Source of the DNA: a virus
Reading direction: 5' to 3' (one strand)
Length of the DNA stretch: 64,000 bases
Virus record (IMG/VR): IMGVR_UViG_3300045988_161114
Location: 64,001-128,000 of that record
A program made the translations under genes and the position numbers. The notes below the pieces were generated by a model. The model searched no databases. It was not told where the DNA came from and saw nothing but the letters and a program-made list of their open reading frames with translations. This document shows, in pieces, positions 15,890 through 44,101 of this stretch. Each line of letters opens with the position of its first letter. Positions within the stretch are counted from its first letter, which is position 1.

Positions 15890-18800
15890 CTAATAATTTT
15901 GATTCTGGAACCTTATTGTACTTCTTGATGCAGAATCTCCTTGAAGCATACTTCTTAATGACTGCTTCAATCTGTCGTTACTTCTATTATCTATTTGATA
16001 TCCGGCAACTGATACAGATTGTGCTTGTGCGCCATCTGTTATGTATGCAGAATTATTTTCTATTACTGGTAATGTTGGATTTGTTCTAGCAGTAGGAGAA
16101 TTATACATAGGAGATGTTGTGGTTGGAGATTCGGCCCCAACAGTTAAACCTACTATACCTAAACCAAGTCCGCCTAAGAGTATTGATTTCTTATTAGCTT
16201 TTATAGTTGAAATAATTTGATTTCCTATATCAGTAGCAGTATCAATAGTAGCATTAGTTGCCGCTTTTGACAATACTTCTTCACTAAGATTAACCTCTCT
16301 AGCTGTTGATTTTGGTATTCTTGGTATAGCAGCTTCAATCTTATCTGCTTCTTTCCCAGAGTATTTTGAACCAACCATGTTAGGACTATTTATAGTTATA
16401 TCTGCGCCATGTGTTGAAACAGCATCACCTATAAATTTACCTATATCTACAAATTCATCAGCACCAGTAAATATTTCAGGGATAACATTTTTAACCCATT
16501 CTCCTATTTCGTCATATGAGGCAAATCTGCTTTTACCTGCAGACTCTCTCATAGATGCAATAGTTTCAAGAAGTGAGTTTGCATTTGAACCAGATCGTAC
16601 AGTTTTAAGTACGTTCTCTTGCATGGCACCAGCTACAGCCTGTGCCATAAGTGCCCTTTTATTTATAGATTCTTCTATAAGTTTTCTAGACGGATCGCTT
16701 ACACCTAATGCCTTTACGGCATCTGACAAATCTGATCCTCTTTTTCTTTCTATTGCTTGAGATAGAAGTTGTTGAAATTCCGTTATCTCTGCGGCACTAA
16801 ACTTACGTTGTTGAGATTTAACCTGCTTCAAGATATTCTCTTGAAACTGATCTTCTGCTACAGTTTTTGCTCCAGACTTTAATGGGTTCACTACACCATA
16901 TTGTTCCATCTCGGCCATTTTGGTATTAAATGTTTTTAAGAAATTCTTTTCATTTACAAATATATTATTTTGTAACGACATCAAATCTCTTAACTCTTTA
17001 TTAACCTTGTTATTATTAAGATCGTCTGCTCTGAATACGTGAATCTTGTCATCATCAAGGTCGCCGGATGCTGATGCCAATTGGTTTTCACCCATAGCAA
17101 TTACTGTGCCTTTTTGTTTTATGGATGGATCAACAAAGAACGTTACAGCTTGTGCGCTAAGTGAGCTAGATGCAGGAGTACGTATTGCCAACCCTAGACT
17201 ATCTTTAATAGCATATGGTGTTTTTGATTTACGATTAAGTTTGAAACCAAGCGACCTTGCAGTCTCTTCATTTATGAATACCGCATTACGTCCAGCTTTT
17301 TCTTCCTGTGCTCGTATTATCTCTGCGGCCCCTGTTAATGATACAGCAGTAGCAGTTACACCATTTCTTGCAGTTCTTCTTGTAGCAGCTTTTGCAATGG
17401 TTGTATTAGTAGATTTTAATTTAGATTTAAGCTCTTCAAGATCTGTTAAATAAGATTGTTTCGCTATATCTATATATCTACTATTTTCACCATCTCTCAT
17501 AGCCCTCTGATATTCCATCATTGAAACCAAAACATTACGCTTCAACTTGTCTGTTTCCGCCATGATGTCAGAACCATGAATATCTTTAATACCGCTATTA
17601 TCGCTGTTCAGTAGGTTTATAGATAATGACCTTAAACCTATTTTCTTAGATGACATACCTTCTGGAACTATGAGTTTTACAGATGCAACACCATCATTAT
17701 TGATCATATCTTTAAGATGTTTTGCTGCAAACTCTTCCCTATCTTTTGCTTCAAATAAGGCTCTTATAGATTTAGGATCATCGCCGAATATAGAATCAAT
17801 AGACTGCCCATCAACTATGTTTTGTAGTTTTCTTGACCTTAGTTCGTATCTTGAATCTTCATTAGCTTCCCCTATTAATTCTAATGAATCTATTGATACA
17901 CCTGCTGCCTTTAATTGGTCTGCTGCCATCCAGTCCATAGTTGCTTTTGATGTATTTGCACCAGTAAGTTCCCTAGTACCTTCTTGTAGCACACCGAAAG
18001 AACTTAGTCCTAATGCTGTCATGTTCTTTTTTCGCATTGTTTCATATATATTGGCAAAATCATCTTGTAGTGATTTAAACATATCTTCTGGACTTATTCG
18101 TCCATTCGAATAGTCGATCATTCTTGATGAAGACTGCTCTATGTATTTTGCTAGGCCTTTTTCTATATTATTCGGATCAATATGAATATCTCCGCCAGCA
18201 AGATTCAGTGTTATAGGAGAATTGGCCTGTGAGCCAACTTTACTTATCATATCTATCATTGTTGCCATTGCTGTCTGAGATGATTTACCATCAGACATTG
18301 CATTATTGGCAAATGCGGCACCAATAATTTTAGATTGATTAACGTCACTAATCTTACCTGACGCATCTATTTCTTTTTTGATTCTGACAAATTCTCTACC
18401 GGCAGGACTTATTCTCCCATCTGAATCCAGTTCTGTATTGTCAACTATTCTGTTGACTATATTTTTAAGGCTAACCTGGTCTGGGCTATATCTATATTTT
18501 CTGATAGCTCTATCTATTTCTGTTATATCAGAACCTATTTTAGTATCAGAACTTCTAACCATCCATTGAGATGTGAAATTGATACCAGAGTTTCTTTCTA
18601 GATATTCCCTTATCTTTGTGGCATTTTTGTCATCGGAGTTTGCTACAAGACTTAAAAGTCTTTTAAAGTATTTTTTGGTCCCCTCTCCATAGCTTTGAAG
18701 TTCCTCATCTGATGCCATTAGACCAGTTACAAGTGCATGGAAATTTGCCTTGCCTATTTTAGCCATTTTATTTATAGAGAATTTTAGGCCATTGGTTTTA

Positions 18801-20884
18801 TCAGCAGACACTAATCCTAATTCAGACATAGCATATCCATACATAGCATTTTTGTATGAATGCTTATCTAGAATTATTGCATTCGATTTCAAGTCTCCAA
18901 ACAATTTGACAATATTATCATCATTATTTGATAGAGAAGATGTTCCTGCTCCAATTAACTTGTATTTACCGCCTGAATTTACAGCACCAGATAGCTCTAC
19001 AGTTTCAAAATGTCTTGGTGCTCTAATCTCTTCTCCATTAGAGAATCCTATAAGCTCTCCACCTTTGAATGATACTGGGCCTTCATTAGTGCCATTTATA
19101 AGAGATTGTATTTTTTCAGTAGCATCACTAGCAGCTATAAAGTCTTTGCCGCCAAGTGTTACTGTAGTGGCTTTCTTAACAGTGTAATCTGACTCTTGTA
19201 TTATTGATTGACCATCGCCTATAGCTGTGCCTGTAACCCAGCTTCCTAAGCTATAGTTATAATCATATCCTACAGCATTAAATCCTATATTTTTAACGCC
19301 ATTAAATGATGACGTATCTACTCCATTTTTAGATAGTTCCATAACAGCTTTGCTTAGATTATCTTCTCCTCCTGATGTAGAAATATTACCACGTGAAGCA
19401 TATGTTGCATCACGGTCAGGAGATGATACTATACCAGTATATACAGAGTTATTATTGTCACCCATGAATACCTTTGCCTGATCAGAATGTCGTATATTGT
19501 TGAATCCAGGATTTAGACCGTTTCTAAGTCTATCAAGCTCTATGTTTTCTACAATATTTTTATACTCTTCGGCGTTGATATTCTTTATACCTCTTATTTC
19601 TCCAGTCCTATCGTCCCTATAAAATTGCTCACTTATATTTGTAAGTTTATTTTTTATAGGCATATCAGATATATTGACAAGATCTGTTTTAGGTCCTACA
19701 TATTCTATTCTGTCAGAGAATTTTTTAGATACTTCATTAAGAGGTTTATTAGTATTGAGGTGCTCAAACAGCATTGACTCTACAGGAGTAAATGCTTGTG
19801 ATTTTACTTCTTGTGCAGATGTAGAAAATGGTCCACTAGTATTAGTGTATATATTCCCTTTTACTTTTGTGCCATCACCAAGCAATTGAAATTGATTATA
19901 AGATTCGGCAGAGTATATATTGCCGCCTTTTGATACAAATTTGGAGCCATCTTTACTGTACTCTTCCATATGCAGAGAGCCAGTAACACCATCTTTAGTG
20001 ATACTTATTTTACTATCTTCAAAGCTTATCTTGCTGTTTTCTGTATTATTGCCTATATTAGATGCTATTCTAAATGCATCTATTTCTGGATAATTCAGCT
20101 CTTTTACGAGATACTCTTTTATTGCACTGGTCTTCTGTTCAGATGTAGCACTAATATTTAAATCTAATGATTTACCTCTATTAAAGTTTGTTTCTGGAAC
20201 ACTAGACAAATTTAACTTCTGTAAGTTTGAAGTAGGGATAAGTAATCCTGTTTCTGCGTCTACTACACCTGTTATTGCATTAGGCATCGATGAACTTAGC
20301 AGCGCAGATAATATGTTTTTATCTTTTACGTGGGCCGGAAGCGACTGTTTTATTTGCTCAAGATTCTTATTGTTAAGCCATGAATCAAATATATTATTAA
20401 ATAGGTCTTCGCCTAAAACAGATGATATATCTTGTCCATATATCATAGAGAAGTTTCTTTTAACAGCCTCTTTATATGATTGCATACCCTTCTGGGTTAA
20501 TTTATGCATTTCAGACAACGCCACTTGAGCTTCTCTGCTGCTAGTATTGTTACCAAATCTACCTATATTTAAAGATGCATAAGCTTGTGAACTTAGATTC
20601 ATATGCATCTCTTTTGCATTTCTAGCAAACTTCTCAGTAAACCTGTTTGCTGCCCTTCTGGATAATCCTCTGTATCCAGAAAGGTCAGCTTTATTAAATG
20701 CTATATCGTCAGCTATTTCTCTTTTCGCTCTAGAGATTCTTTTAGATATTTGAAGAGAATTGCCAACATAAGCACCTATGCCCATACCTAATGCTGCTGC
20801 TATAGGATGGTCTTCTGGGTCTTGAGACATTGCGCCTAATATTGCTCCGCCTATCATAAGTTTAGGTTGTTTAATTGGATCCAT
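15890..20884 (-). CDS. giant tail-module protein (1664 aa) containing an RNA-polymerase-like double-psi beta-barrel with a DxDxD loop
   Basis: ATG start. Hydrophobic Gly/Ala segments occur at both termini (MIGGAILGAM..., ...SILLGGLGLGIVGLTVGA). Residues 1169-1284 align motif by motif with the beta-prime catalytic DPBB (see the sub-feature and findings). Confidence 0.6.
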   Translation of the reverse strand: MDPIKQPKLMIGGAILGAMSQDPEDHPIAAALGMGIGAYVGNSLQISKRISRAKREIADDIAFNKADLSGYRGLSRRAANRFTEKFARNAKEMHMNLSSQAYASLNIGRFGNNTSSREAQVALSEMHKLTQKGMQSYKEAVKRNFSMIYGQDISSVLGEDLFNNIFDSWLNNKNLEQIKQSLPAHVKDKNILSALLSSSMPNAITGVVDAETGLLIPTSNLQKLNLSSVPETNFNRGKSLDLNISATSEQKTSAIKEYLVKELNYPEIDAFRIASNIGNNTENSKISFEDSKISITKDGVTGSLHMEEYSKDGSKFVSKGGNIYSAESYNQFQLLGDGTKVKGNIYTNTSGPFSTSAQEVKSQAFTPVESMLFEHLNTNKPLNEVSKKFSDRIEYVGPKTDLVNISDMPIKNKLTNISEQFYRDDRTGEIRGIKNINAEEYKNIVENIELDRLRNGLNPGFNNIRHSDQAKVFMGDNNNSVYTGIVSSPDRDATYASRGNISTSGGEDNLSKAVMELSKNGVDTSSFNGVKNIGFNAVGYDYNYSLGSWVTGTAIGDGQSIIQESDYTVKKATTVTLGGKDFIAASDATEKIQSLINGTNEGPVSFKGGELIGFSNGEEIRAPRHFETVELSGAVNSGGKYKLIGAGTSSLSNNDDNIVKLFGDLKSNAIILDKHSYKNAMYGYAMSELGLVSADKTNGLKFSINKMAKIGKANFHALVTGLMASDEELQSYGEGTKKYFKRLLSLVANSDDKNATKIREYLERNSGINFTSQWMVRSSDTKIGSDITEIDRAIRKYRYSPDQVSLKNIVNRIVDNTELDSDGRISPAGREFVRIKKEIDASGKISDVNQSKIIGAAFANNAMSDGKSSQTAMATMIDMISKVGSQANSPITLNLAGGDIHIDPNNIEKGLAKYIEQSSSRMIDYSNGRISPEDMFKSLQDDFANIYETMRKKNMTALGLSSFGVLQEGTRELTGANTSKATMDWMAADQLKAAGVSIDSLELIGEANEDSRYELRSRKLQNIVDGQSIDSIFGDDPKSIRALFEAKDREEFAAKHLKDMINNDGVASVKLIVPEGMSSKKIGLRSLSINLLNSDNSGIKDIHGSDIMAETDKLKRNVLVSMMEYQRAMRDGENSRYIDIAKQSYLTDLEELKSKLKSTNTTIAKAATRRTARNGVTATAVSLTGAAEIIRAQEEKAGRNAVFINEETARSLGFKLNRKSKTPYAIKDSLGLAIRTPASSSLSAQAVTFFVDPSIKQKGTVIAMGENQLASASGDLDDDKIHVFRADDLNNNKVNKELRDLMSLQNNIFVNEKNFLKTFNTKMAEMEQYGVVNPLKSGAKTVAEDQFQENILKQVKSQQRKFSAAEITEFQQLLSQAIERKRGSDLSDAVKALGVSDPSRKLIEESINKRALMAQAVAGAMQENVLKTVRSGSNANSLLETIASMRESAGKSRFASYDEIGEWVKNVIPEIFTGADEFVDIGKFIGDAVSTHGADITINSPNMVGSKYSGKEADKIEAAIPRIPKSTAREVNLSEEVLSKAATNATIDTATDIGNQIISTIKANKKSILLGGLGLGIVGLTVGAESPTTTSPMYNSPTARTNPTLPVIENNSAYITDGAQAQSVSVAGYQIDNRSNDRLKQSLRSMLQGDSASRSTIRFQNQNY
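17030..17380 (-). other. beta-prime-type DPBB-like segment with the metal-binding loop D1275-L-D1277-D-D1279
   Basis: Four motifs align with E. coli beta-prime. RRTARNGVTATAVSL (1169-1183) matches KRVDYSGRSVITVGP. NAVFINEETARSLGF (1200-1214) matches HQCGLPKKMALELF. RTPASSSLSAQAVTFFV (1235-1251) matches RAPTLHRLGIQAFEPVL, and also yeast Rpb1 RQPSLHKMSMMAHRVKV. ASASGDLDDDKIHVF (1270-1284) matches AAYNADFDGDQMAVHV. The DLDDD codons were verified at 17048-17062. Confidence 0.55.
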
Positions 20885-20889
20885 TTTTA

Positions 20890-23800
20890 TTACCTATTAT
20901 ATATAGTCATATCGAAATCACCATGACCACTATTGCTTATATTGACATTTACTGCTCTTACGCCATTACGATATAGTTCATCTTTTATCATATTCACAGC
21001 ATCAAACCTTTGTTGGGCCTTAGTTCTTCTAATAGATTTAAGCTGAGTTGTAACCTGATCTTCTGCAAGTATTGCTGATTGTCTTTTTAGATCGTCTTGG
21101 TCATCTTCGTAATAACCAAATTCTATGGCATTCTCACCACCTATATTTAATGTTCTAAGTTTTATATCTTTGACATTTAATCTAGGGTCCCATCCTGCAA
21201 ACTTCTCATCAGGCATTCCTGTTGCATCGACTATTAATTGCTCTGCTCTTCTTTCTTGTAGGTATTCTCTAAATGATATACCTATGTCGGCATCGCCACT
21301 TCTTTTATATGCACCATAAACTTGTGAGTTATTTTGTATAAGTTGCTGCTCTTCATCTTGTAGATATTCTGAGACATCTCCGCCGGATTCAATTACATCT
21401 TTACGGCTCCACAACATCTTGTACATTTCTGATACATTGTTTCCATCAACAATAGCAGCAATACGTTGTCTATCAGAGTCCTTTGCATTTACAAATGATG
21501 TAAAATACTGTTTCTCTTCGCTGGATAATCCCATATATGCAGAACTTACATCTTTTTCGGTATCAAGTCCTGATGCCAATGCACCGTATGTAGTCTTGTA
21601 AGCTTTTGCCTTTGCCTGATTCGCTATAAATAAATTGCCTTTAACATTTTCTCTATAAACTTTCATTTGTTTATAGTATTCCAATGCTTCAAAGTAATTA
21701 TCTATATTACGTTTTTCTTGTGTATGCTCTGGTATATATGATTTATCAAATGATTTATAGCTTTCCTCAAAGAATGGTCTTATGAAATGTTTAAATGGTT
21801 CATTCCATAATGCTGTATCAGAAGCTATTAACTGAGTTTTCTCGTAATCTTCTATAGCTGTTCTTTGGTGTAGTAACTTACCGGCAGGTCTGAAGAATGT
21901 TAATCTCTCTGTCGGTAGTTCTGCATTATGAGTTATTGTTTCCCATAACTTACCAAGAACCTCTCCACCAACAGATACATTATCAAAATCTTCATCAGTC
22001 TTATACTCTGCAAATGTTTTCTTTTGCGCTCTTCTTTGTAACTGATCCCAAGTATTCTCGAATATTCTTTTCTCGGACTCTGTCATTTCACCAGAGTTAT
22101 ATCTAGACTCCATTAACTCTTTTGCATTGTAGAATTCACTTGAGCCGTATGCTACATCTGATAGAACTTTAAATTTATGTATATCAGGATATTCTTCTAA
22201 ACTCAATCCTGCAACTTCTGGATTGTAATGTTCATATCCTGCACCTGGCATTCTATCATAGCCAAGTTCTACATTTGCGTAGTAGTTACCTTTTGAGAAA
22301 TCTGTGTAATATTCTCCTCTGGGAAGCCAAGATGGAGCAACACTGTTATGTAAAGGATTTGCTCTATCATACAATACACTAGATGACATTGGAACTATAC
22401 GACGCAGTATATCCGCTGCGCCAAATAAACCACCAAGGTTTTGTTCAGTAAATTCTCTTGCAAAGTTTGTTGATTCACCTGACCTTGCTAACTGGTTCTT
22501 TTGAGAAAAATCGCCTACAGCAAAATCACTTAGCACACCAGATACTGCCCATCCTTTAAGACCTATAAAGTCTGATGCAGAGTTATAGATATATTGTGCT
22601 GATTCTGCATATGGAGAGTATGTAAGGTTCTTACGCCCAGTAATCATTTTGTCATTTATCAATGACTGTTCTACATTTGAATAGTTTACTGGAACTTCAA
22701 AACTTGGTTTTCTTGTTATATCTCCAAAATTATATGCAAATGCATATGAGTTCTCATCACTAACATAGTAGTCCTGTGGTACTGACTGAAGATTTTCCAT
22801 CAGCTGAGCCATGTTAGGATTTATTCTATCTGGTTTAATTATTTGACCTATTGTACGTTCAAATATTTTACCGGCCCAACCACCTACTGATACGTCCATA
22901 CCCCATATTGGATATGGCATATCATCTTGGTGCATTTCTTCAAATCTATATGGATTTTGTAAATAATCTATTGGATTAAGGAATGGATTTAGGTCTTCTT
23001 TGGTGTCTCCATCGCCATAAAGAATTTTATCTTTATTGCCTGCAATTAATCTTTGATACCAGTTCTTAGTGAAGTATTTTACACCGCCACCCTCTATATC
23101 CGTAGACCCAGAGAACCATAATGCATTTGATCTTTGTTCAACATCTTCACCGTATAGATATCTGTCTTTTAACGAATCTGATGATTCACCAGCTAAAGCA
23201 CCAGGAAGAAATGGTAATGCTAATGCTAGTCCAGCTAGTGCACCTCTCATTGCCCATTTTTTAGTATTAGCTATTCTGCCTAATGATGATCCTATCGGCG
23301 TATTACTTACAAGCTTAGATACGCTAGAGTTTATAACATCACCCTCTGCATGAGCAACCCTTTGTCCAGCTTTATATCCATCATCTGACAACACAGATGG
23401 AACTACACGTTTACTGTAAGCTACAGTACCGGCAAGCATTGCTCCTGCTAATGGGAATCCAGCTAGTCTTAGTAACGATGTTGAACCAGGGGCTACATAT
23501 TCTTGTTGAGTTGTATACTCTTCAAACCTATCAGATACTGTTTCTGCATATGCTATTCTAGCATTTACTGCTGTTGTTGCTACACCTTCTAATATACCCT
23601 GGTCATATCCGCTTCCACTTGTACCGATTACTTTAGCCATATTATCCAGTGTATAATATGCTGCACCAAGTATACCAAGTTTTACTGCACCATGTTTAAC
23701 ATATCCAACTGCCAAGTCTGATATTTTCATATCAGCATTTGCATGTCTATTTATTCTTCCATATTTATTTATAAATCTAAATATACCATTATTTTCATTA

Positions 23801-24711
23801 AACAGTGTTCCGCCAAGTTCTTGAACGAATCCTAATGGCTCGTTGACCATATTGAAGCCTTGAGCTATACCTTGTCCTATTACAGATTTAATCCATCCCT
23901 TATTTATATTAGCGTCTTTTGCATCTGCAATTATTGTAAATGGAGCTTCTGTATCAAGAATATTTTTAGACAATTCAAATATTTCTTTTCTAGAAGAAAA
24001 GCTCATATCCTGCTGATGTATAATATGTCTTCTTAGTATTTTATTATACATTGAACTTTGAGCATGGCCATTTGTATGACCTGTCCATTCTGATGTAACA
24101 AGTCTTGCATTGCTTATTACTTCTTCATCACTAGAAGAAAATAATTTACCATCTCTGTATAACAGCCCGGTAGATATGTCCGCCGATGTTATACCTCTGT
24201 TGCCATATTTATGTGCTAATTCTTCAAAATATTTCTTTTGATGTTTTAATAGTTCAGGAGTGAAGAAATGCTCACCATTTTGAGTTGCAAATGGCTGCAT
24301 TATATGAGAAGTCTGGAATGTTCTTAAAATAGAAAAAGGGGAGAGTTCCTCAAACGCCCTAGCAGTGTTCATTGCTAAGTTTGTTAAGGTGACTCTCCCG
24401 CCGTATGATCGGATAGCATCATCTGCTGTTCCATTAATTGATTCAGATAAATAACTTAGAGTTATGTAATCTCTAATTTTATTTTGTGCGCTTTGCCTTT
24501 TTAGTATCTCTTTTACCGTAAATAATGCACCTGCTGATAATCCATACTTTGTTATAGAGCCTATTATTTCTTTTGTAGCCTGTATCTCTTCATATGTATT
24601 TACATCATCTGATGTATACATATTATATGGGGATTTAACATCCCCTGGTTGTATTCCCTTATCAAATACTTTTTGGCCAAAAATATTTGCAGCTAGATTT
24701 TGTACTGACAT
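20890..24711 (-). CDS. giant tail-module protein (1273 aa), tape-measure / ejected-protein candidate
   Basis: ATG start. First gene after the chaperone-slot genes. Has an internal hydrophobic Gly/Ala segment (GALAGLALALPFLPGALAG). No enzymatic motif recognised. Confidence 0.6.
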   Translation of the reverse strand: MSVQNLAANIFGQKVFDKGIQPGDVKSPYNMYTSDDVNTYEEIQATKEIIGSITKYGLSAGALFTVKEILKRQSAQNKIRDYITLSYLSESINGTADDAIRSYGGRVTLTNLAMNTARAFEELSPFSILRTFQTSHIMQPFATQNGEHFFTPELLKHQKKYFEELAHKYGNRGITSADISTGLLYRDGKLFSSSDEEVISNARLVTSEWTGHTNGHAQSSMYNKILRRHIIHQQDMSFSSRKEIFELSKNILDTEAPFTIIADAKDANINKGWIKSVIGQGIAQGFNMVNEPLGFVQELGGTLFNENNGIFRFINKYGRINRHANADMKISDLAVGYVKHGAVKLGILGAAYYTLDNMAKVIGTSGSGYDQGILEGVATTAVNARIAYAETVSDRFEEYTTQQEYVAPGSTSLLRLAGFPLAGAMLAGTVAYSKRVVPSVLSDDGYKAGQRVAHAEGDVINSSVSKLVSNTPIGSSLGRIANTKKWAMRGALAGLALALPFLPGALAGESSDSLKDRYLYGEDVEQRSNALWFSGSTDIEGGGVKYFTKNWYQRLIAGNKDKILYGDGDTKEDLNPFLNPIDYLQNPYRFEEMHQDDMPYPIWGMDVSVGGWAGKIFERTIGQIIKPDRINPNMAQLMENLQSVPQDYYVSDENSYAFAYNFGDITRKPSFEVPVNYSNVEQSLINDKMITGRKNLTYSPYAESAQYIYNSASDFIGLKGWAVSGVLSDFAVGDFSQKNQLARSGESTNFAREFTEQNLGGLFGAADILRRIVPMSSSVLYDRANPLHNSVAPSWLPRGEYYTDFSKGNYYANVELGYDRMPGAGYEHYNPEVAGLSLEEYPDIHKFKVLSDVAYGSSEFYNAKELMESRYNSGEMTESEKRIFENTWDQLQRRAQKKTFAEYKTDEDFDNVSVGGEVLGKLWETITHNAELPTERLTFFRPAGKLLHQRTAIEDYEKTQLIASDTALWNEPFKHFIRPFFEESYKSFDKSYIPEHTQEKRNIDNYFEALEYYKQMKVYRENVKGNLFIANQAKAKAYKTTYGALASGLDTEKDVSSAYMGLSSEEKQYFTSFVNAKDSDRQRIAAIVDGNNVSEMYKMLWSRKDVIESGGDVSEYLQDEEQQLIQNNSQVYGAYKRSGDADIGISFREYLQERRAEQLIVDATGMPDEKFAGWDPRLNVKDIKLRTLNIGGENAIEFGYYEDDQDDLKRQSAILAEDQVTTQLKSIRRTKAQQRFDAVNMIKDELYRNGVRAVNVNISNSGHGDFDMTIYNR

Positions 24712-24713
24712 GA

Positions 24714-25244
24714 TTACACCGGAGGAACATTATTCTGTGGTTCTTCTATATTTATTTCTTTTATATGCTCTGGATATGTTGCATGACATATAGCATATAA
24801 TTCAAATAATTTATTTACTGGAAGTTCTACAACTTCTAAGTATGGAGTGTGCATATATCTAGAAACTATTGCAGCCATTTGGTCTAGTAGAGTTACCGAC
24901 TCCCTGTCTCTTTCAAATGCCTTTTGTGGATCTTGTGCATATTCTAATGACTTAGATAATATTACACTAGATACAGTTGTTATGAATCCTGCAGGTGCCT
25001 CATCGAAGTTTACATCTCCTACTATTCCTGGAATGGAGATATAGCATTCTCTGAATATATCTTCGTATAGCTCTTCTCTTACATAGCCTTTTTCTAGATC
25101 CATTCTCAGTATTCTCTGTATCTCTACAGAATTAAGTAGTCTAGCTATTACTATAAGATTTCTATAAATATATCCGCCCAATTCTATATCAGTATCATTA
25201 AATGGAATTATTATACTTCCAGATTTGACACCTATTGCATTCAT
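24714..25244 (-). CDS. hypothetical protein in the tail-assembly-chaperone slot (176 aa)
   Basis: ATG start. Lies between the tube genes and the giant ORFs. The functional call is by position only. Confidence 0.45.
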   Translation of the reverse strand: MNAIGVKSGSIIIPFNDTDIELGGYIYRNLIVIARLLNSVEIQRILRMDLEKGYVREELYEDIFRECYISIPGIVGDVNFDEAPAGFITTVSSVILSKSLEYAQDPQKAFERDRESVTLLDQMAAIVSRYMHTPYLEVVELPVNKLFELYAICHATYPEHIKEINIEEPQNNVPPV

Positions 25245-25245
25245 A

Positions 25246-25740
25246 TTAAATTACCTTTATTTGACTTAAAGCTAATGATTCAGGTACAAATGAAGATTTG
25301 TACATTATCTGCTCTTTTAATGATGATACAACACCAGCACTTGATGTTGCCATAAATTTTTCATCTGGCTTAGGGTACAACAGACATTTCTTAACTATTG
25401 CCTCTTCGCCACGAAGTGCTTCGTTTAAGAATCCGCTTTTCATAAGCTGTTTATATTCTTGTCGTCTTAATGTACGCCATAAATATAAATCTGATTCATT
25501 TAGAATAGTTGATATATGAATTACGCCATATTGTGCTTTCCAGTTTTCGATATCTGCTTCTGTTGGAGCATTTTCAAGATTAGCTAATGTCTTAACTATT
25601 AAAGACATTTCCGACTCTTCTTGTACCTCTTTGTCTTTTTCTTCTTCTAGACGTTGAGATATTTCTATTGCCTCTTCAACAGTAAGGTCATCTTCTGGTA
25701 GCGTGCTTAATCCTTTTACTTCTTCTACTGTTAATGCCAT
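25246..25740 (-). CDS. hypothetical acidic protein in the tail-assembly-chaperone slot (164 aa)
   Basis: ATG start. Acidic N-terminus (EEEKDKEVQEESE). The functional call is by position only. Confidence 0.45.
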   Translation of the reverse strand: MALTVEEVKGLSTLPEDDLTVEEAIEISQRLEEEKDKEVQEESEMSLIVKTLANLENAPTEADIENWKAQYGVIHISTILNESDLYLWRTLRRQEYKQLMKSGFLNEALRGEEAIVKKCLLYPKPDEKFMATSSAGVVSSLKEQIMYKSSFVPESLALSQIKVI

Positions 25741-25741
25741 T

Positions 25742-26566
25742 TTATCCTCTTACTTCTTTTGCTATGAATCTGTAGCCATCAACTAATTGACCATCGCTAC
25801 CTATATCGACACTGGTTTCAAACCCTATTATTCTTATTTCTTGTATATCAACATATTGTCTTACGCCAGACATAGTTGGGTCACCATTATTATAAGAAAT
25901 TGTGATATTAAAAGTGTCAAGGTCGGCCCAGTCTAATACCGACTTATTGGAAACTTTACCAATTTCCATTGCCGTCTCTTTCTCTTTGTATACTCTTAAT
26001 TCTTCTGATGTAAGCTGCATTTGTTCATATGGTGTAAGTCTTCTGAACTCAGAGGTTTTATTTATATTGTCTAATACTCTTGGCAAATAGTCTTTATTGC
26101 ACTTGTTTATTGATATAAAACCAGTTACCATATTGTTTCCTCTTGATAGGAAACTATATCTAGAATTACCTATAGTATATATTGGTACACTAGATAGTGA
26201 CTCATTTATGCCTATGCCGGAAACCTTATCAAGCCATATATCTTCTATGTATATCATACAATCGCTTGACGAGTAATATTTATTATATAGTCCATTTACA
26301 AATCCATGTCCCTGCAAAGGCCTTTTGCCTTTTACATTAACTTCTTTTAATTGAACATAGTCTATAGGATTTGCTCTTGAACCTTTGTTTGCATTATTAG
26401 ACGCATTTACGGCTCTTGCTGTAGCCTTTGGACTGGCTCCACTACTTGTTTCACCAGTCCCTGAATTTACGGTAGTTAATGATACACTTCCATCTCTATT
26501 TTCAGACGCATAAACTGTATCTACAGTTCCATCATCTCTGTCTACGACTGCTGTTATTGTACTCAT
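25742..26566 (-). CDS. tail tube paralogue 3 (274 aa) with a low-complexity N-terminal extension
   Basis: SVPIYTIGNSRYSFLSRGNNMVTGFISIN aligns with tube APVFTMGSPDAKAIARGKRYVSGACIFTV. The C-terminal ...YRFIAKEV aligns with tube ...MSFIAKRV. Confidence 0.55.
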   Translation of the reverse strand: MSTITAVVDRDDGTVDTVYASENRDGSVSLTTVNSGTGETSSGASPKATARAVNASNNANKGSRANPIDYVQLKEVNVKGKRPLQGHGFVNGLYNKYYSSSDCMIYIEDIWLDKVSGIGINESLSSVPIYTIGNSRYSFLSRGNNMVTGFISINKCNKDYLPRVLDNINKTSEFRRLTPYEQMQLTSEELRVYKEKETAMEIGKVSNKSVLDWADLDTFNITISYNNGDPTMSGVRQYVDIQEIRIIGFETSVDIGSDGQLVDGYRFIAKEVRG

Positions 26567-26569
26567 TTA

Positions 26570-27967
26570 CTATCCTGATTTCTTATTTGTCTTACGCCAT
26601 ACAGAAGGCATAACAACTGTATTGCCAGTTCCCCATAGCCCTCTTTTTTCTCTTTTTGCGGCTAATGCAGCTTCATTAAGCTTGGCTCTTTTATCTTCTG
26701 ATTCGCCAATCTGTTTAACACCAGCATCCATATAATGCGCTGTTCCAGCTGATACTGCTGCTAATACATAATTATAATTATACACTAGAGTACGGCCATA
26801 AACATCTGTGCCTGCAATTTTTACTACGCCATCTTTTACATCTTGATCCCATTTGCCAGACTTAACATACTCCTTCATAAAGTCTGAAGCCTTATACCCA
26901 TACTCTTGTGGCTTAAGATCTCTATGCTCAGTCTCTGGTGTATCTATACCTAAAAGACGTATAGTGAATTTACCTTTATAATCGCTTCCTGTTGATGTTT
27001 TTACGCCACCATTCCATACTAAGGTGTCGCCGTCGTCTACTTCAAACTTATCGCCTTTATCTAGTGCAGTAAGTGATGACGAGTCTATATCCTGTGATTT
27101 TGGATATACATATTTTTTAGTGCCACCATTTGTATATGGATCGCTTTTATATATTCTATACTCGTAAGGAAGGGATTCCAAATTGTAATTAGGATCCTCT
27201 CCTAATCCTGCTAATTGAGATAATGTTGATATAACCTTTTGCTCATCTGGTGTAATTTGTCCATCAAGATTAGCCTGGTTTTTATATTTTTCAAGTGCGT
27301 TTTTAAACCACTCTTGATCTGGATTTGTATTAGATTTATCTGATTTATATTTTGTATTAGATTTGTCTGATAGCTCAGATGCTTTCTTTCCTGTGCTACC
27401 AGTAGTTATATTGTACTTTGTAGAATTCAAACTTTCAAGAGTCTGTCTAGCATCGCGTGCTACAAATGATATTGTATTTTCAACAATAAGGTCTTGTATA
27501 GAATGTACTTGACCGGAATTAATTAGTGTCGCGCCATATATTATTTCAGATACGGAGAAGTTGCCGTATTCAGAACTTAATACTATTATTATATCGAATG
27601 GCAATATATCATCCATCATAAGATGGTGATATGTTTTAGAGTTTTCATATTTTAATGCGTATATAGAATCTATATCTTTATTCAATCCTATATCTTTTGA
27701 TACTTCATTTAAGAATGCCCTTAAATCATCATTTAGGAACATTGCTTTTATAATAGAGCCCGCTACATATCTTTTGCCAATAGCAAACCCGTCGATATTG
27801 GTGTTCCCTAAATTATAGACAGGTACTTTATCCCTGTATGTCTGATATGAGAGAGATATCAAACTTCCCATATATAGTGCGCCGTATCCAGGGAAGTTAA
27901 AAATAATGTGGGTGGCATCGCCACCCACTGAATGATACTCTCCCTTTCGTATATTGTCATATGACAT
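26570..27967 (-). CDS. tail tube paralogue 2 fused to a C-terminal staphylococcal-nuclease (SNase/thermonuclease) domain (465 aa)
   Basis: The N-terminal 175 aa align with the tube protein (EYHSVGG, KVPVYNLG...GKRYVAGSII, PFDIIIVLSSEYG...IYGATL...SFVARDA). The C-terminal domain carries SNase signatures. Confidence 0.8.
   Translation of the reverse strand: MSYDNIRKGEYHSVGGDATHIIFNFPGYGALYMGSLISLSYQTYRDKVPVYNLGNTNIDGFAIGKRYVAGSIIKAMFLNDDLRAFLNEVSKDIGLNKDIDSIYALKYENSKTYHHLMMDDILPFDIIIVLSSEYGNFSVSEIIYGATLINSGQVHSIQDLIVENTISFVARDARQTLESLNSTKYNITTGSTGKKASELSDKSNTKYKSDKSNTNPDQEWFKNALEKYKNQANLDGQITPDEQKVISTLSQLAGLGEDPNYNLESLPYEYRIYKSDPYTNGGTKKYVYPKSQDIDSSSLTALDKGDKFEVDDGDTLVWNGGVKTSTGSDYKGKFTIRLLGIDTPETEHRDLKPQEYGYKASDFMKEYVKSGKWDQDVKDGVVKIAGTDVYGRTLVYNYNYVLAAVSAGTAHYMDAGVKQIGESEDKRAKLNEAALAAKREKRGLWGTGNTVVMPSVWRKTNKKSG
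26630..27055 (-). other. SNase (micrococcal nuclease-like) domain
   Basis: DDGDTLVW...FTIRLLGIDTPETEH...QEYGYKASDFMKEYV...GTDVYGRTLVY...AALAAKREKRGLWG parallels S. aureus nuclease (IDGDTVKL...FRLLLVDTPETKHP...EKYGPEASAFTKKMV...TDKYGRGLAYIY...AQAKKEKLNIW). Confidence 0.85.
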
Positions 27968-27994
27968 ATGTGGCTCCGAAAGGATTAGTAGTTA

Positions 27995-28669
27995 TTATTT
28001 GCTATTGTAGCTGTCAATTGCCATCCAGTTAGAAACACGTTTAGCAATGAATGACATTTGTTTTTCTAGAACAAGGTCATCAACAGACACACCACCAGCT
28101 TCACTCATAAGCTCTACACCGTAGATAACCATCTTAGATGTATGACCGTATTCATTTGTAGCAACAAGGCTGATATCAAATGCCAATACTTGGTCAGCAA
28201 GGTTAGCTTTTGTTTTTGTACGCAATGCGTTATTGATGCTTGTATTAGAAGTGAGATTATTTGCAGTGAAGTTGTAGTCAGCAGCAACTGTACCGCCTGA
28301 TCTAGTTGCAGCAGAAGCAGCAGTAGATGCATAACCATCTTGATATTTACCGCCATTGATTTGGCTATAAATACCGCCACGTTGATAGTTAGCAGACTCG
28401 TGTTTGCTCAGATAAACAGTTGTATTATCTTGTTCATCCATAGCTTCAAGCAGAGAGTCACGGTCGAATACAGTGAAGATACAAGCTCCAGAAACATAAC
28501 GTTTACCACGTGCAATTGCTTTGGCGTCAGGAGAGCCCATTGTAAATACAGGAGCCTTTTCTCTGTCTACACGGTAAGAAACCATTGACATTTCGCCGAA
28601 TACTTTGCTACCGAATACAGGTGTGATATCTACACCACCAAAGCTGTGGTATTCCTTAAATTCTGACAT
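27995..28669 (-). CDS. major tail tube protein (224 aa)
   Basis: Immediately downstream of the sheath gene. G+C-richer, biased codon usage typical of abundant virion proteins. ATG with a GGA ribosome-binding site. Confidence 0.75.
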   Translation of the reverse strand: MSEFKEYHSFGGVDITPVFGSKVFGEMSMVSYRVDREKAPVFTMGSPDAKAIARGKRYVSGACIFTVFDRDSLLEAMDEQDNTTVYLSKHESANYQRGGIYSQINGGKYQDGYASTAASAATRSGGTVAADYNFTANNLTSNTSINNALRTKTKANLADQVLAFDISLVATNEYGHTSKMVIYGVELMSEAGGVSVDDLVLEKQMSFIAKRVSNWMAIDSYNSK

Positions 28670-28718: not shown

Positions 28719-30965
28719 TTAAAGATCTAAAGCTAATTTAACTGCTACGTTAACTTCACGAAGCTCAAAGGCTGGAACGATTGTTAACGCTACGTTTAAA
28801 GTACCTTTTCCGTTGATAACAGTAGGCTGGTTAACAACGTGAGAATATTTAACTACTGCATCAGCAGCAACTGCTTGGTCAAGTACAGACTCAATAGCTG
28901 TATCCAGAGCAACTTTAGTTGCTTCTGTTAGACCTTTACCAATGTAAGGAATACATACGTTACGGATACCAGTAATAACAGAGTTAATGATGATCGATGT
29001 AGAAACGTAATCATAGTCAGAGTTGATGTTGGTAGCCAATTCACCAGACACTACACGAACTACGTTATTTTTGGTTTGGAATGTAACATATCCGGCGCCA
29101 GACAGTTGGTTTAGCTTGGTTTTCTTCATTTCAAATGGCAAGCTTAGTCTTGGCAGAGGAGCATTGGTAGTAGAGTTACCAGCGTTAATTGTGGTCAGAA
29201 GACCAGCATAGATTGCAGCAGCATTTGTGATTCTTGTAGAAGTACCAGTAGATGAGCTAGCTGGAGTGATTACAAGTTGTGGAACAACAGACAGGTATTT
29301 ACCAATATCAATGTTTGCACCATTGCTGTCTACTTGAACAACACCATCTACGAAACCAGAAGAGGTTTTGTAATAACCTTGTGCCTGGTCAGCACGTTCA
29401 ACCATATGGCGAACACCTAACAGACCAGTACCGTTAGTGATAATGTTACCAGCAGCATCATAGGTAGGAGCAGAACCAACCCATTTGTTTACTGCGAATG
29501 TAGAGGTTGTTTGAGGAACAGATGTGCCGATTGTTACAAGGGTAAATTGTTCGTTTTCAGAGATGTTGTATGCAAATTCTGCAAGCAGGTGTGCAAAGTC
29601 AGCTTCATGATAACGTCTGTAAACGATAGGTTGTCCGTTACCGTTTATGTCAGCTTCTGTAGAGTTCAGAGTAGTGCCGCTACCTTTACGATATACAACT
29701 TTAGATGTAGACCATTCAAATTTGTACTCACCATCTTCTTCTGATACATATACATATTCCAGTCTGTCTTTAGCGGTAGAACCAGATGCAATGTTTGGAG
29801 CATCTACGATAGCGTAGTCTGTAACAACAGACATAGCATTTACTGTTTCAAGGTCTTTCAGACCAGCATATAGAATCTCGTAGTATTCTTTCCAAGTACA
29901 GTTCAGGCTGTCTTTACCTTCTTTAAATGTCCCAGGAACTGAAGAACCAGTTTTAGCAATGGTGTAATCAACAGCGATTGCTTCTTGATCGCCTGGGGCA
30001 GTTTGAAGTGTAAGAGCTTTGCTCAGGTTGTCATCGCTTGCTTCTACAGTAGCTTCTGATGTTTTATCTACACCGGCAACTACAACACGGTCGATTGTAA
30101 CTTGGCTGTTAGCATGAGTGCCAGCAAGAACAAATTTAGTTTTAGCGCCGTCGCCACTGAATACAGCTGCACCGGCCTCATTGCCAGTAGCAATGTAATC
30201 ATAAGTAATATTTACTTTGGCACGTGCATCTTGTGCAGAATTGAATTTAATTTTCCAGTAGTTATTCAGAGCGTCTTTGCTCAGGGTATAGTCAGAGCCA
30301 GATGCTTTTTCTGCGTCATTGACTTTAACAACTACGTTTGTAACGTTGTCAGTTTTTGTTGTACCAACAAGTCTAAATTCTGTATTAACACCGTTACTGA
30401 TGTGGTTTGATTCACCTTTTTTGGTTACAGGAATAATATTAGACATCAGGACTGGTTCTGTAGGAGTACCGATTACAACACCAGTAGTTTCATCAAAACC
30501 AGTAACTGTTACTTGGTTAAGGTCAACCTCAGAACCAGGAACGTTAGAGTAAACGATGTTTTTACCTTTAAATACGATTAGGCATGATTTACCGTCATTG
30601 CTAGGACGAGGACCGCAGTAGATACGGAAGCTATCACCAGCTGCAACAGATTCTTCAACTGTAGCAAGTTGTGAACCTTCACCCCAAAGTCCATTTAATG
30701 ATGCTGGAGATCCACCAATACGGTATAGTGATACTTCTGTTGCACCACCTAGACGAGCTTCAGACATCTTTCTGATCAGAGGAGATTCTGGGCCAAATGT
30801 ATTAGCAGCTTTGTTGGTATCACCAACATTATATATTCTTCCAGAGGTACCCATTTCAGCACGACCGATAATTAAGACGCGGTTAGCATCAGATGTAGAG
30901 TCTACTCTTAAATTACCGTCTAAAAGCTCCAGATTTACGCCTGGCAGATTTTCATATGTAGCCAT
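28719..30965 (-). CDS. tail sheath protein (748 aa)
   Basis: The N-terminus (MATYENLPGVNLELLDG...RVLIIGRAEMG...ANTFGPESPL) and C-terminus (GYVTFQTKNNVVRVVSGELAT...VPAFELREVNVAVKL) follow the conserved sheath pattern. Also supported by size, strong ribosome-binding site (GGAG) and biased codon usage. Confidence 0.85.
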   Translation of the reverse strand: MATYENLPGVNLELLDGNLRVDSTSDANRVLIIGRAEMGTSGRIYNVGDTNKAANTFGPESPLIRKMSEARLGGATEVSLYRIGGSPASLNGLWGEGSQLATVEESVAAGDSFRIYCGPRPSNDGKSCLIVFKGKNIVYSNVPGSEVDLNQVTVTGFDETTGVVIGTPTEPVLMSNIIPVTKKGESNHISNGVNTEFRLVGTTKTDNVTNVVVKVNDAEKASGSDYTLSKDALNNYWKIKFNSAQDARAKVNITYDYIATGNEAGAAVFSGDGAKTKFVLAGTHANSQVTIDRVVVAGVDKTSEATVEASDDNLSKALTLQTAPGDQEAIAVDYTIAKTGSSVPGTFKEGKDSLNCTWKEYYEILYAGLKDLETVNAMSVVTDYAIVDAPNIASGSTAKDRLEYVYVSEEDGEYKFEWSTSKVVYRKGSGTTLNSTEADINGNGQPIVYRRYHEADFAHLLAEFAYNISENEQFTLVTIGTSVPQTTSTFAVNKWVGSAPTYDAAGNIITNGTGLLGVRHMVERADQAQGYYKTSSGFVDGVVQVDSNGANIDIGKYLSVVPQLVITPASSSTGTSTRITNAAAIYAGLLTTINAGNSTTNAPLPRLSLPFEMKKTKLNQLSGAGYVTFQTKNNVVRVVSGELATNINSDYDYVSTSIIINSVITGIRNVCIPYIGKGLTEATKVALDTAIESVLDQAVAADAVVKYSHVVNQPTVINGKGTLNVALTIVPAFELREVNVAVKLALDL

Positions 30966-30980
30966 AAATATTATGCTCCA

Positions 30981-31739
30981 TTAATTTTTATTTATTCTTT
31001 GTTGTAGTTCTTCGAGCTCTTCGTTTAATAAAGAGTCAACTATTTGCAATGAAGTATCAATAGATACTATATTTCCACGTCGTTTATATCCAGGTTCCTC
31101 AGTTATTACTTTGTAAACCAAGGGTATTCCGAATAATCTTTTTGAACCAAAATCCGATGATAGTATTGTTTGACTTCTACCTTCATAATACAAGCCGCCA
31201 ACATGCATTCTTAACAAATGATAATTATCAACAAAAAAGTTTTCTAATGATGTTGCAAGTCTTCTTGCATCATCTGCTTTTTCTGACCATACTGTAAACT
31301 TTAATATATTTTCATATATAAATTCTTTAAACTCATATGTATCGCCATCTGACATTTTCTTTTCAAATAATGTCCTTGCTTTATTCCATTTAGTGGAGTT
31401 TGTTGATACAGCAGTTGCTTTTAATGTAGCTGGAGCGCGTCCCCATATTTCAAATGTTACATTATTATGAGTATTTGTTACATCACCGTAATCTGGATAA
31501 ATTTCTGTAAATGAAAATTTATTCCTATCTTTTGGACCAATCCCCTTTTGGGGATCTTCTAAAATCATCTCATTATTTCTTAGTAAAGAATACAGGAATA
31601 CTATGAATTTGTCAATCGTCAATTTCCTATAATTCTTTAAAACTTCGTCTGGGCTAGTAACAACAAAACTGTTATCAACAGACATTTTATGAAGACGATC
31701 TAGTGCGTAATCGTTATCGTTATTTATTCGCATTGTCAT
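30981..31739 (-). CDS. hypothetical neck / tail-completion protein (252 aa)
   Basis: ATG start. Lies directly upstream of the sheath gene. The call is by position only. Confidence 0.45.
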   Translation of the reverse strand: MTMRINNDNDYALDRLHKMSVDNSFVVTSPDEVLKNYRKLTIDKFIVFLYSLLRNNEMILEDPQKGIGPKDRNKFSFTEIYPDYGDVTNTHNNVTFEIWGRAPATLKATAVSTNSTKWNKARTLFEKKMSDGDTYEFKEFIYENILKFTVWSEKADDARRLATSLENFFVDNYHLLRMHVGGLYYEGRSQTILSSDFGSKRLFGIPLVYKVITEEPGYKRRGNIVSIDTSLQIVDSLLNEELEELQQRINKN

Positions 31740-42877: not shown

Positions 42878-44101
42878 TTAGCCTTTACGTTGAATACGTG
42901 GGATATTGCTAACAATTGCTTGTGGAGGCAGAACAATTTCGTTAGGCTCGATGCTTACGTTGCGAGCAACAGAAATAGCTTGACCTTCGTTGAAGATTGC
43001 AATACCATAGCGTTCGCGGATTTTAACCTTTTTGATGTCTCTTGCTGGGTCATCCCATTCGTCCATAGTAGGATTCTCGATAACGCACAGAGCACCAAGT
43101 TCTTTAGTATCGATCATGATAATGTCAGTAGTTTTAGCTACTGGGTCGAAGCGTACATGTGGAGATGCGATAATACGCAGACCGGCAGTTCCAGGGAAGT
43201 ATGATGGGAGTTTGAATGTGCTTTCTTGAGTACCAACACGCTCGTTAGCGGTAGGATTGAAAGCAGTGTCGCCAGACATACGTGTAGCATTACGCCAAGC
43301 TTCAGGGATAAATTTACCTTGACCAATGTTAGAATTAGGCATTGTGCTGAACCATTCGTTCAGACCACCACCTTGCAATGCATATTCGCGCAGAACTGGA
43401 TCTTTAGCAAATGTAGCCCAAGCCAATGGGTGGCACAGAATTACGTCAGGAGTAAATCCACGTTCCAGAGTTGAGGCATACATATCATACATGTCATCAG
43501 CGGTGAATGAACCATTACCAGCACCAGACAGGTCACGACCAGTTGTACGACCGATCAGAGATTGATCAGGGTTCAGGTTGTCGAATACAACAACACCGGC
43601 GTTATTAATTACGTTGAAGATGTTTTCTTCACGGGCACGAGCCATAGCTTTACCCAATTCGCGCAGAGTGTAACCAACAACATCCCATTGGTTGTTATTC
43701 AGCATTTCTTCAGTAATGCGGACAGCCAAACCGTATTTACCGATAATGGCACTTACTTGTCCACCACCGTTAGTGGTGCTGAATTCTGGATATTCTTGGC
43801 CTTCCGCCATAGAGATATCACCAACATCGATTGCGCCTAGTGTACGGAATTTAACTTCGGTAACATATGGGCCATTAAATTCGATACGTTGTAGCAATGA
43901 TTGACCGATCAGGTTAGGCTCAATGCCTTCCAAAACGACTTCCTCAATAACACGCTTCATGATTGTAGCGATGTTAGGAGTTGCCAAAGTATCTTTAATT
44001 GACATCACTTCGCCAGTGATATCACGACCGTTGTTTTTAAACAGAGAGTGCAAGGTCTGTAGTTCGTCTCTGATATTCAGTTTATCTTCTGTTGTAGACA
44101 T
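42878..44101 (-). CDS. major capsid protein, HK97-fold type (407 aa)
   Basis: Position after the protease-scaffold and decoration-like genes. Size, strongly biased G+C-richer codon usage and a dedicated downstream terminator all support the call. Sequence character is typical of HK97-like MCPs. Confidence 0.8.
   Translation of the reverse strand: MSTTEDKLNIRDELQTLHSLFKNNGRDITGEVMSIKDTLATPNIATIMKRVIEEVVLEGIEPNLIGQSLLQRIEFNGPYVTEVKFRTLGAIDVGDISMAEGQEYPEFSTTNGGGQVSAIIGKYGLAVRITEEMLNNNQWDVVGYTLRELGKAMARAREENIFNVINNAGVVVFDNLNPDQSLIGRTTGRDLSGAGNGSFTADDMYDMYASTLERGFTPDVILCHPLAWATFAKDPVLREYALQGGGLNEWFSTMPNSNIGQGKFIPEAWRNATRMSGDTAFNPTANERVGTQESTFKLPSYFPGTAGLRIIASPHVRFDPVAKTTDIIMIDTKELGALCVIENPTMDEWDDPARDIKKVKIRERYGIAIFNEGQAISVARNVSIEPNEIVLPPQAIVSNIPRIQRKG

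Follow-up and report, generated by a model that had tools for sequence, protein, structure and literature searches.

To our knowledge, every well-studied contractile system has, besides its tube protein, minor tube-fold proteins, each a single ring that joins hub and tube. The closest described relatives of the system considered here lie around Bacillus phage 0305phi8-36, an ancient lineage marked by paralogy among domains and by the insertion of domains, as in gp142 (Hardies et al., PMC2147016). Its GenBank entry describes gp140, on the evidence of mass spectrometry, as 'major structural protein ... tail tube' and gp141 (502 amino acids, aa) as 'tail tube paralog'; both gp141 and gp142 were detected as virion proteins by mass spectrometry. 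A similar set of genes is found in a 64,000-nucleotide (nt) stretch of viral DNA (IMG/VR record IMGVR_UViG_3300045988_161114, positions 64,001 to 128,000; 'the window' refers to this whole stretch), with one addition: the second tube-like protein (465 aa; 26570-27967, minus strand), here called the fusion, runs on into a staphylococcal nuclease (SNase, or thermonuclease) domain. The source appears to be an uncultivated contractile-tailed phage of ~180 kilobases (kb) from human-microbiome samples, in which an SNase-type nuclease with an apparently active site is joined to a minor copy of the tail tube protein.

The tandem genes with tube signatures that were picked out in a sequence-only reading of this DNA hold up as called: the three open reading frames (ORFs) are exact, all lie on the minus strand, and homology and profile comparisons support their kinship. 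The first, tube1 (27995-28669, 224 aa), the predicted major tail tube protein, matches gp140 over its full length at 34 % identity (E 5e-42) and gp141 at just 1e-9. The fusion pairs by position and by best match with gp141, with ME3_31 and with KLEB27-3 gp027, its N-terminus matching gp141 at E 1e-13 and gp140 at E 2e-11. ORF3 (25742-26566, minus strand, 274 aa), which consists of a variable N-terminal segment of ~90 aa and a conserved core, pairs with gp142 (BLASTP E 1e-9) and with KLEB27-3 gp028, a 'tail tube protein' (E 7e-9). Judged by these matches, tube1, the fusion and ORF3 are orthologues of gp140, gp141 and gp142, and the triplication is inherited and ordinary. The emphasis that the sequence-only reading had placed on tripled tube genes was therefore half right: the paralogous set is real, but it is the standard gene set of 0305phi8-36 (gp140/141/142) and nothing special.

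The same picture emerges from a wider comparison with isolate phages. Tube-like genes stand side by side, in twos or threes, in the ME3, KLEB27-3, WH1/Edson and 0305phi8-36 lineages, and in each of these the tblastn match of the fusion was to the second gene (ME3 is an Acinetobacter phage; KLEB27-3, WH1, Edson and 0305phi8-36 are Bacillus phages), and all three genes already carry the annotation 'tail tube protein' in the KLEB27-3 record. The order sheath, tube, paralogue, third paralogue, two small genes and large virion protein is shared with 0305phi8-36, with ME3_30-32 and with KLEB27-3 gp026-028. Like the fusion, gp141 has a tube domain and a long C-terminal extension, and it is a virion protein. 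However, the gp141 extension contains no recognisable domain, in ME3 and KLEB27-3 the extension is small or absent, a nuclease is carried by none of them, and identity to the window proteins is ~28-34 %. No near-identical isolate phage was found by megablast of the locus.

The kinship of the three window proteins with each other rests on several comparisons. Residues 1-175 of the fusion share 29 % identity with tube1 (E 3e-18). ORF3 is only weakly similar by BLASTP (E 6e-4 and 0.023), through the VP(V/I)Y..G...G..V.G motif seen in the sequence-only reading, and a narrow alignment of the fusion reached the ORF3 family in hhalign at 6 % probability; with a 49-sequence profile of tube1 and tube2 proteins the alignment to that family spans 152 columns and reaches a probability of 96.4 % (E 1.3e-9). 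When the AlphaFold model of ORF3 (core predicted local distance difference test, pLDDT, ~60-83) was compared with the PDB by Foldseek, the top 50 matches were all tail-tube, Hcp or extracellular contractile injection system (eCIS) tube proteins, with a best E of 2.4e-4 and template modelling (TM) scores of 0.44-0.58; AFP baseplate chain 6rao_F came first, and phage 812, diffocin and PVC proteins were among the others. Since pairwise, profile and structural matches agree, the three genes are a real paralogous set. For the fusion's own N-terminus, the tube fold is a prediction drawn from homology to gp140 and gp141 and from the hhalign link to the ORF3 family. No Pfam tube family was found for the fusion or for the 49 family members. 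The set adjoins the sheath gene within the tail module, and hhalign found no further tube-family members among the small tail genes at 9169-9837, 8430-8849 and 30981-31739.

The nuclease domain occupies aa ~301-455 of the fusion (26603-27067, minus strand). Pfam PF00565 matches aa 335-445 at 53.1 bits (cut-off 21; E 5e-14) over profile positions 1-105 of 107, the C-terminus aligns with PDB staphylococcal nuclease (E 2e-8) through the active-site motif, and the region aa 290-460 is modelled at pLDDT 82-96. Residues D19, D21, T22, R35, D40, P42, E43 and R87 of SNase correspond to D312, D314, T315, R337, D342, P344, E345 and R392 of the fusion, and all eight are invariant in 24 full-length homologues that are 35-56 % identical to it; the loss of catalytic residues that the sequence-only reading had allowed for is not seen. 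The equivalent of T41 is T343 in the fusion and Thr or Ala in the relatives; in staphylococcal nuclease T41 binds Ca2+ through its backbone. That enzyme holds Ca2+ by D21, D40 and T41 and needs it at roughly millimolar concentration, far above that in the bacterial cytoplasm, where free Ca2+ is sub-micromolar. The catalytic residues stay invariant while the rest of the domain has drifted to 42-52 % identity (this and the domain identities below are for the loci that are not near-identical to the window, L011-L030), which argues for selection on catalysis. The domain is predicted to be an apparently competent, Ca2+-dependent DNA/RNA nuclease.

The SNase domain alone, used as a query in a word-indexed homologue search, returned only a fragment. 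In a Foldseek comparison of the fusion model with BFVD, the top match was A0A6J5NQ80 (E 3.4e-7), a 1342-aa protein of an uncultured Caudovirales phage with an SNase-like domain; the other informative match was gp141 of 0305phi8-36, and it was weak. Other structural proteins of phages may likewise contain SNase domains.

The joined gene is genuine and old, and it is limited to one clade. In a large protein database, full-length homologues of 438-502 aa (34-98 % identity) fall into 69 clusters; almost all of these have a precomputed SNase match, and they lie on contigs of up to ~190 kb and, in one case, 344 kb. IMG/VR yielded 24 fusion loci on contigs of 65-188 kb, many of them with Human Microbiome Project identifiers, and the order sheath, tube1, fusion, ORF3 and two small genes is kept in 24 of the 24 (at L016 one of the small genes falls below the detection threshold). 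The claim that the middle paralogue continues into a complete SNase domain is thereby borne out well beyond the one sequence in which it was made. The fusion is 48-54 % and the sheath 58-63 % identical to the window protein; the two diverge in step, the pattern of stable vertical inheritance in the clade. In more distant members (34-43 % protein identity) layout and neighbours are unchanged. The most conserved part of the fusion is its tube-family domain (aa 1-179; 27431-27967, minus strand), assigned by homology to tube1: it is 70-76 % identical across the divergent loci, as against 51-66 % for tube1 itself and 58-63 % for the sheath. Conservation above that of the major tube protein is what one expects of an adaptor ring with several interfaces.

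Tube domain and nuclease are joined by a variable tether (aa 180-300; 27068-27430, minus strand), delimited by low identity, variable length and its pLDDT profile. A stretch rich in Lys, Ser, Asn and Thr leads to two predicted helices (aa 216-252, pLDDT ~80) and then to a disordered stretch; identity falls to 26-34 % in the divergent loci, and length ranges from 116 to 132 aa across the clade. The near-perfect 21-nt duplication that had been noticed in the linker is confirmed: the copies at 27324-27344 and 27351-27371 (minus strand) lie 27 nt apart, agree at 20 of 21 positions and encode SDKSNT(K/N). With a near-repeat taken as 21 nt with at most two mismatches, comparable pairs number 2 in the whole window and 0 in 20 shuffles. 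Tandem Repeats Finder did not report the duplication (fewer than two copies); direct comparison confirmed it. It is restricted to the subclade of the window, L007 and L009, and appears as a gap in the other relatives; by this distribution it is a recent insertion, limited to the closest relatives. The window's other 21-nt near-repeat lies at ~44422-44481 (spacing 39 nt), in a minus-strand ORF (44135-45007) that has the capsid gene on one side and the portal gene on the other.

Three further observations concern the tether. One pair of residues, A196-S197 (window ~27377-27382), hardly varies among 24 homologues despite the variability around it; its setting is (K/R)AS.L, and it could be a docking or a processing site. 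The helical part was considered as a degenerate PG_binding_1 domain, such as one of the relatives discussed below (P0070) carries; hhalign reaches the region without confidence, and the identity is not claimed. Finally, one 227-aa database protein (P0096) is 99 % identical to aa 1-179 of the fusion, goes out of frame in the linker near a TTTAAAAA run (ending …PDQEWLKMLRKI*) and has no SNase domain; either an error in sequencing or a natural form without the nuclease could explain it.

A second feature of the fusion gene lies near its start. A terminator scan found a hairpin followed by a T-run at 27898-27928 (minus strand), within codons 14-24 of the fusion: read on the coding strand from 27928 to 27898, it is GTGGGTGGC-GAT-GCCACCCAC and then ATTATTTTTAA, a 9-base-pair stem (7 GC) with a 3-nt loop and a predicted free energy of -18 kcal/mol. 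This stretch is the most conserved nucleotide segment in the first 540 nt of the gene: 33 of 33 positions agree in four lineages and 30 of 33 in a fifth, against a background of ~71 %. The constraint is visible at synonymous sites: at codons for an invariant, degenerate amino acid, six divergent sequences use the same codon at 8 of 10 sites in the hairpin and at 15 of 104 elsewhere in the tube domain (Fisher p 3e-5). Even homologues of 34-43 % protein identity have the stem (GTGGGTGG/CCACCCAC) and a T-rich tail, and their loop codons and the encoded amino acids differ. The same element is present in L005 and in L011-L036; as the stem is invariant, no compensatory changes are available. The hairpin is probably an intrinsic terminator or attenuator placed after the major tube gene. 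Most transcripts would then end just past that gene, and fewer would reach the minor paralogues.

The fusion is one member of a much larger family of carriers. When the 179-residue tube domain was used in a HMMER scan of 1.84 billion representatives, 1553 proteins were found at E <= 1e-3, many of them 400-919 aa long with the tube domain at one end and an extension of 200-750 aa. In a Pfam scan of 84 extended members, 30 carried PG_binding_1 and one a phage lysozyme; other cargo consisted of SH3_3 and of Ig-like or carbohydrate-binding-like domains (CarboxypepD_reg, Cadherin-like, Big_1, Fn3_assoc, CHB_HEX_C). No other nuclease was found by Pfam among the 84. At one locus (L004), three consecutive proteins at the position of the fusion have peptidoglycan-binding or SH3b domains, and the first of them (P0070) is a confirmed tube-family paralogue; gp142 of 0305phi8-36 gives a weak PG_binding_1 match. 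As predicted from these domain matches, the appended modules are overwhelmingly of envelope-binding or envelope-cutting types. On two further contigs (L033, 213 kb; L032, 97 kb) an extended second paralogue is followed by two small genes and then by a protein of more than 2000 aa, and on the first of these a sheath-sized gene of 968 aa lies upstream. No Pfam family covers the group of tube proteins and tube paralogues (1553 representative clusters). The tube family is labelled 'major head protein' in PHROGs (phrog_9206), in NC_009760 ORF141 and in Moorella phage MTATph1. That label is a mis-annotation: the primary record of 0305phi8-36 says tail tube and tail tube paralog.

What, then, might a nuclease do on a tail tube paralogue? 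The explanation favoured here, in which our confidence is about evenly balanced, is that a minor tube ring, probably initiator-like and located at the baseplate end, anchors a nuclease that is gated by Ca2+ and works outside the cytoplasm. We infer each of its elements: that the protein is in the virion, where the ring sits and in how many copies, that Ca2+ gates the enzyme, what its substrate is, and that transcription is attenuated. The fusion would be a minor structural protein, its conserved tube-like domain built into the tail as a ring. By analogy with the rings that tube initiators and adaptors form in other contractile systems, it would most probably sit at the baseplate end of the tube, and ORF3 might form another such ring. 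The C-terminus of the fusion would leave the ring through the tether of ~120 residues that ends in the SNase domain, and the virion would carry few copies of a non-specific nuclease. The enzyme would be silent in the low-Ca2+ cytoplasm during virion assembly and become active outside it, on extracellular or surface DNA; candidate substrates are the DNA of biofilm matrix, lysis-released DNA that can trap progeny, and DNA met as the tube tip crosses the envelope.

A ring is in keeping with four things: gp141 is a non-major virion protein, the tube domain is unusually conserved, the family is one with C-terminal extensions, and the gene carries an attenuator-like element. Action outside the cytoplasm is favoured because the cargo domains of homologues are envelope-directed; because the Ca2+ requirement of SNase lies far above cytoplasmic free Ca2+; and because the fusion is followed, 3 nt downstream, by ORF3 and not by an immunity-like gene, even though the enzyme is made beside replicating and packaging phage DNA.

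A structural precedent is offered by the tube initiators and adaptors, which include T4 gp48/gp54, Afp5/Afp7 and Pvc5/Pvc7 as well as gp113 of phage 812. Their layout, a tube-like barrel followed by a C-terminal extension, is also that of the fusion, and the best structural match of ORF3 is the AFP baseplate chain named above. The initiator of phage 812 is a single hexameric ring between hub and tube; it has a barrel at the N-terminus and, at the C-terminus, a handle that follows the outer side of the hub, and it rides the tube tip through the wall and envelope (PMC13433997). The fusion would, on this analogy, work like a tube initiator that carries a virion-associated enzyme. The differences are considerable: there is no detectable sequence homology; the genes here adjoin the tube gene and do not lie in a baseplate cluster; the extensions of the known initiators are short helical handles or LysM domains, not enzymes; and the ring in the present case is one that we infer.

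Several points weigh against the extracellular tethered nuclease. Its presence in the virion is extrapolated from an orthologue of 28-34 % identity. The initiator genes of phage 812, P2 and Mu follow the tape-measure gene and do not adjoin the tube gene. The sheath covers the tube, and exposure of the nuclease before contraction needs a tether threaded out of the baseplate. Structure prediction, proposed as a check in the sequence-only reading, gave a divided answer: the ORF3 model matches tube and Hcp folds and the SNase domain is confidently modelled, but the N-terminal tube domain of the fusion has pLDDT < 50 in the AlphaFold2 model (24-sequence alignment), and the 49-sequence tube-family profile found nothing below E = 1 among PDB sequences. 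No relatives that would point to a host or its Gram type were confirmed among the 185,579 bacterial and archaeal genomes scanned. Finally, a 2022 review states that active degradation of extracellular DNA by phages 'has not been reported' (PMC9145820).

Another way to understand the fusion is as an injected effector. The SNase, at the tip or in the lumen of the tube, would be carried into the periplasm or cytoplasm and there degrade the host chromosome, plasmids, prophages or competitor DNA, as a phage counterpart of Hcp-ET in type VI secretion systems (T6SS). Some facts suit this proposal: the active site is strictly conserved, initiators cross the wall on the tip of the tube, which can get as far as the cytoplasm (PMC13433997). 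Hcp proteins with C-terminal toxin domains are known T6SS effectors (PMC8262886, citing Ma et al. 2017), a likeness that extends to the covalent attachment of an effector domain at the C-terminus of a tube-fold carrier. The likeness stops short in several respects: the fusion has no Hcp (PF05638) match, it lies in a phage structural module and not in a T6SS locus, no immunity gene adjoins it, and its nuclease is of the Ca2+-dependent SNase type, not of the HNH or colicin type, with a likely site of action outside the cytoplasm. Ma et al. are said to have reported in 2017 that the toxin domains of Hcp-ET include DNases.

An injected effector seems unlikely on other grounds as well. Synthesis takes place in the cytoplasm, beside the phage DNA, and the fusion has no immunity or inhibitor gene next to it; SNase depends on Ca2+, which in free form is sub-micromolar in the cytoplasm; a non-specific nuclease placed where the DNA leaves its channel would endanger the phage's own genome; the modules on homologous carriers are of cell-wall-binding, Ig-like or lysozyme type and not toxins of the cytoplasm; and the lumen would need room for six folded 17-kDa domains as well as the tape measure. 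Of the two locations named in the sequence-only reading, the tip of the tube is plausible by analogy with the phage 812 initiators (PMC13433997), and the inside of the tube is weak; its further proposal, injection for degradation of the host chromosome, fares poorly in view of the envelope-directed cargo of the homologues, the absent immunity gene, the cytoplasmic synthesis and the millimolar Ca2+ need. A more specific form, to which we give less credence still, has the tip-borne nuclease delivered into envelope or cytoplasm at penetration, as the phage-borne equivalent of Hcp-ET that destroys resident or competing DNA, with the terminator inside the ORF setting the dose. If this were true, the targets would be plasmids, prophages, the DNA of co-infecting phages and transforming DNA.

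A third possibility is that the enzyme does not belong to the virion at all. It might act in the infected cell, for instance in recycling host DNA, or be freed at lysis, with the tube domain serving as an oligomerisation scaffold. Stand-alone SNase genes are indeed common in phages (SPbeta YokF, the staphylococcal phage thermonuclease, cyanophage endonucleases), and the existence of P0096 suggests that the nuclease may be dispensable for assembly. Such genes encode the same catalytic family as separate non-structural or lipoprotein genes, however, and in the isolate phages they lie outside the tail modules; here the fusion gene stands between the major tube gene and another paralogue in the tail module in 24 of 24 relatives, its tube domain is its most conserved part, and its orthologue gp141 was found in the virion by mass spectrometry. 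We regard a non-virion enzyme as improbable. More doubtful again is a non-catalytic module, in which the SNase fold would bind nucleic acid or act as a structural oligonucleotide/oligosaccharide-binding (OB) fold, holding the leading DNA end or docking in the baseplate. OB folds related to SNase do serve for binding in other proteins, such as Tudor-SN. LysM peptidoglycan-binding-like domains of baseplates are thought to be structural in papers cited in PMC13433997. Against this role stands the invariance of D312, D314, R337, D342, E345 and R392, with 42-52 % identity elsewhere in the domain. An artefact, that is, a mis-assembly or a missed stop or frameshift joining separate tube and nuclease genes, can draw on the frameshift in the linker of P0096 and is refuted by a continuous ORF of 438-502 aa in 69 independent clusters and in 24 IMG/VR contigs from many samples, at 34-99 % identity.

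To return to the tethered, extracellularly acting nuclease: in functional terms it would resemble the tail lysins and depolymerases. Phage tails carry enzymes against polysaccharide and peptidoglycan barriers; as in those cases, a catalytic domain on a structural tail protein would face a barrier of the host, and the same window encodes a tail protein with an M23 peptidase. The difference is that the substrate of the fusion would be nucleic acid. No virion-borne nuclease on phage tails was found in the literature searched, and no description of a tube paralogue joined to a nuclease was found in isolate phage genomes or in the literature searched (for tail-tube or virion thermonuclease fusions), in keeping with the impression in the sequence-only reading that the architecture had not been characterised. 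What is new is that a tube paralogue of a phage has a nuclease as its cargo; such carriers were known already, and so was the principle that tails have enzymes appended to them.

The surrounding genes make up the tail portion of a complete structural module (terminase, portal, capsid and sheath are present), with all genes of the region on the minus strand. G+C content is ~35 %, and no transfer RNA genes were found in the window. Coordinates are 51634-53583 for the large terminase, 46675-48459 for the portal and 42878-44101 for the major head protein. The tail sheath (28719-30965, 748 aa) lies directly upstream of the three tube-family genes; it matches phrog_16991 (tail sheath) over its full length at E 4.8e-69 and occupies the position of 0305phi8-36 gp139 and of ME3_29. 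Downstream of ORF3, two small genes (24714-25740; 164 and 176 aa) hold, by position alone, the place of a tail-assembly chaperone pair, gp143/gp144 of 0305phi8-36, which are chaperones according to Hardies et al. (PMC2147016). Next comes a 1273-aa protein (20890-24711) related to the virion structural protein gp145 (BLASTP E 3e-9) and then a 1664-aa protein (15890-20884). In 0305phi8-36 the tape measure, gp146, is one gene beyond gp145 (Hardies et al., PMC2147016); since the 1273-aa protein is related to gp145 and not to gp146, the 1664-aa gene is by position the more likely tape measure here.

The M23 peptidase domain (aa 762-856, E 1.9e-33) is embedded in a 2013-aa tail protein (9839-15880, minus strand) at the position of the gp147 hub of 0305phi8-36, which itself has peptidase domains; it would be a second virion-borne enzyme in the same tail. 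At L033 (4893-6900) the major tube gene appears to be split around a gene with a faint LAGLIDADG match, and at L034 (6384-7398) and L035 (6213-7506) a gp145-like gene holds an intein (Intein_splicing matches). These matches point to mobile elements in the tail module of related large phages.

The implications reach beyond the one phage. The very large and uncurated family of tube paralogues serves as a general carrier of accessory domains in contractile tails, which bears on how tails are customised and on the engineering of payload display. With a hairpin constrained at synonymous sites, phages may have a simple means of balancing their major against their minor tail proteins. The clade itself recurs in human-microbiome metagenomes, and its nuclease-bearing paralogue is a conserved candidate for how phages handle DNA-rich matrices.

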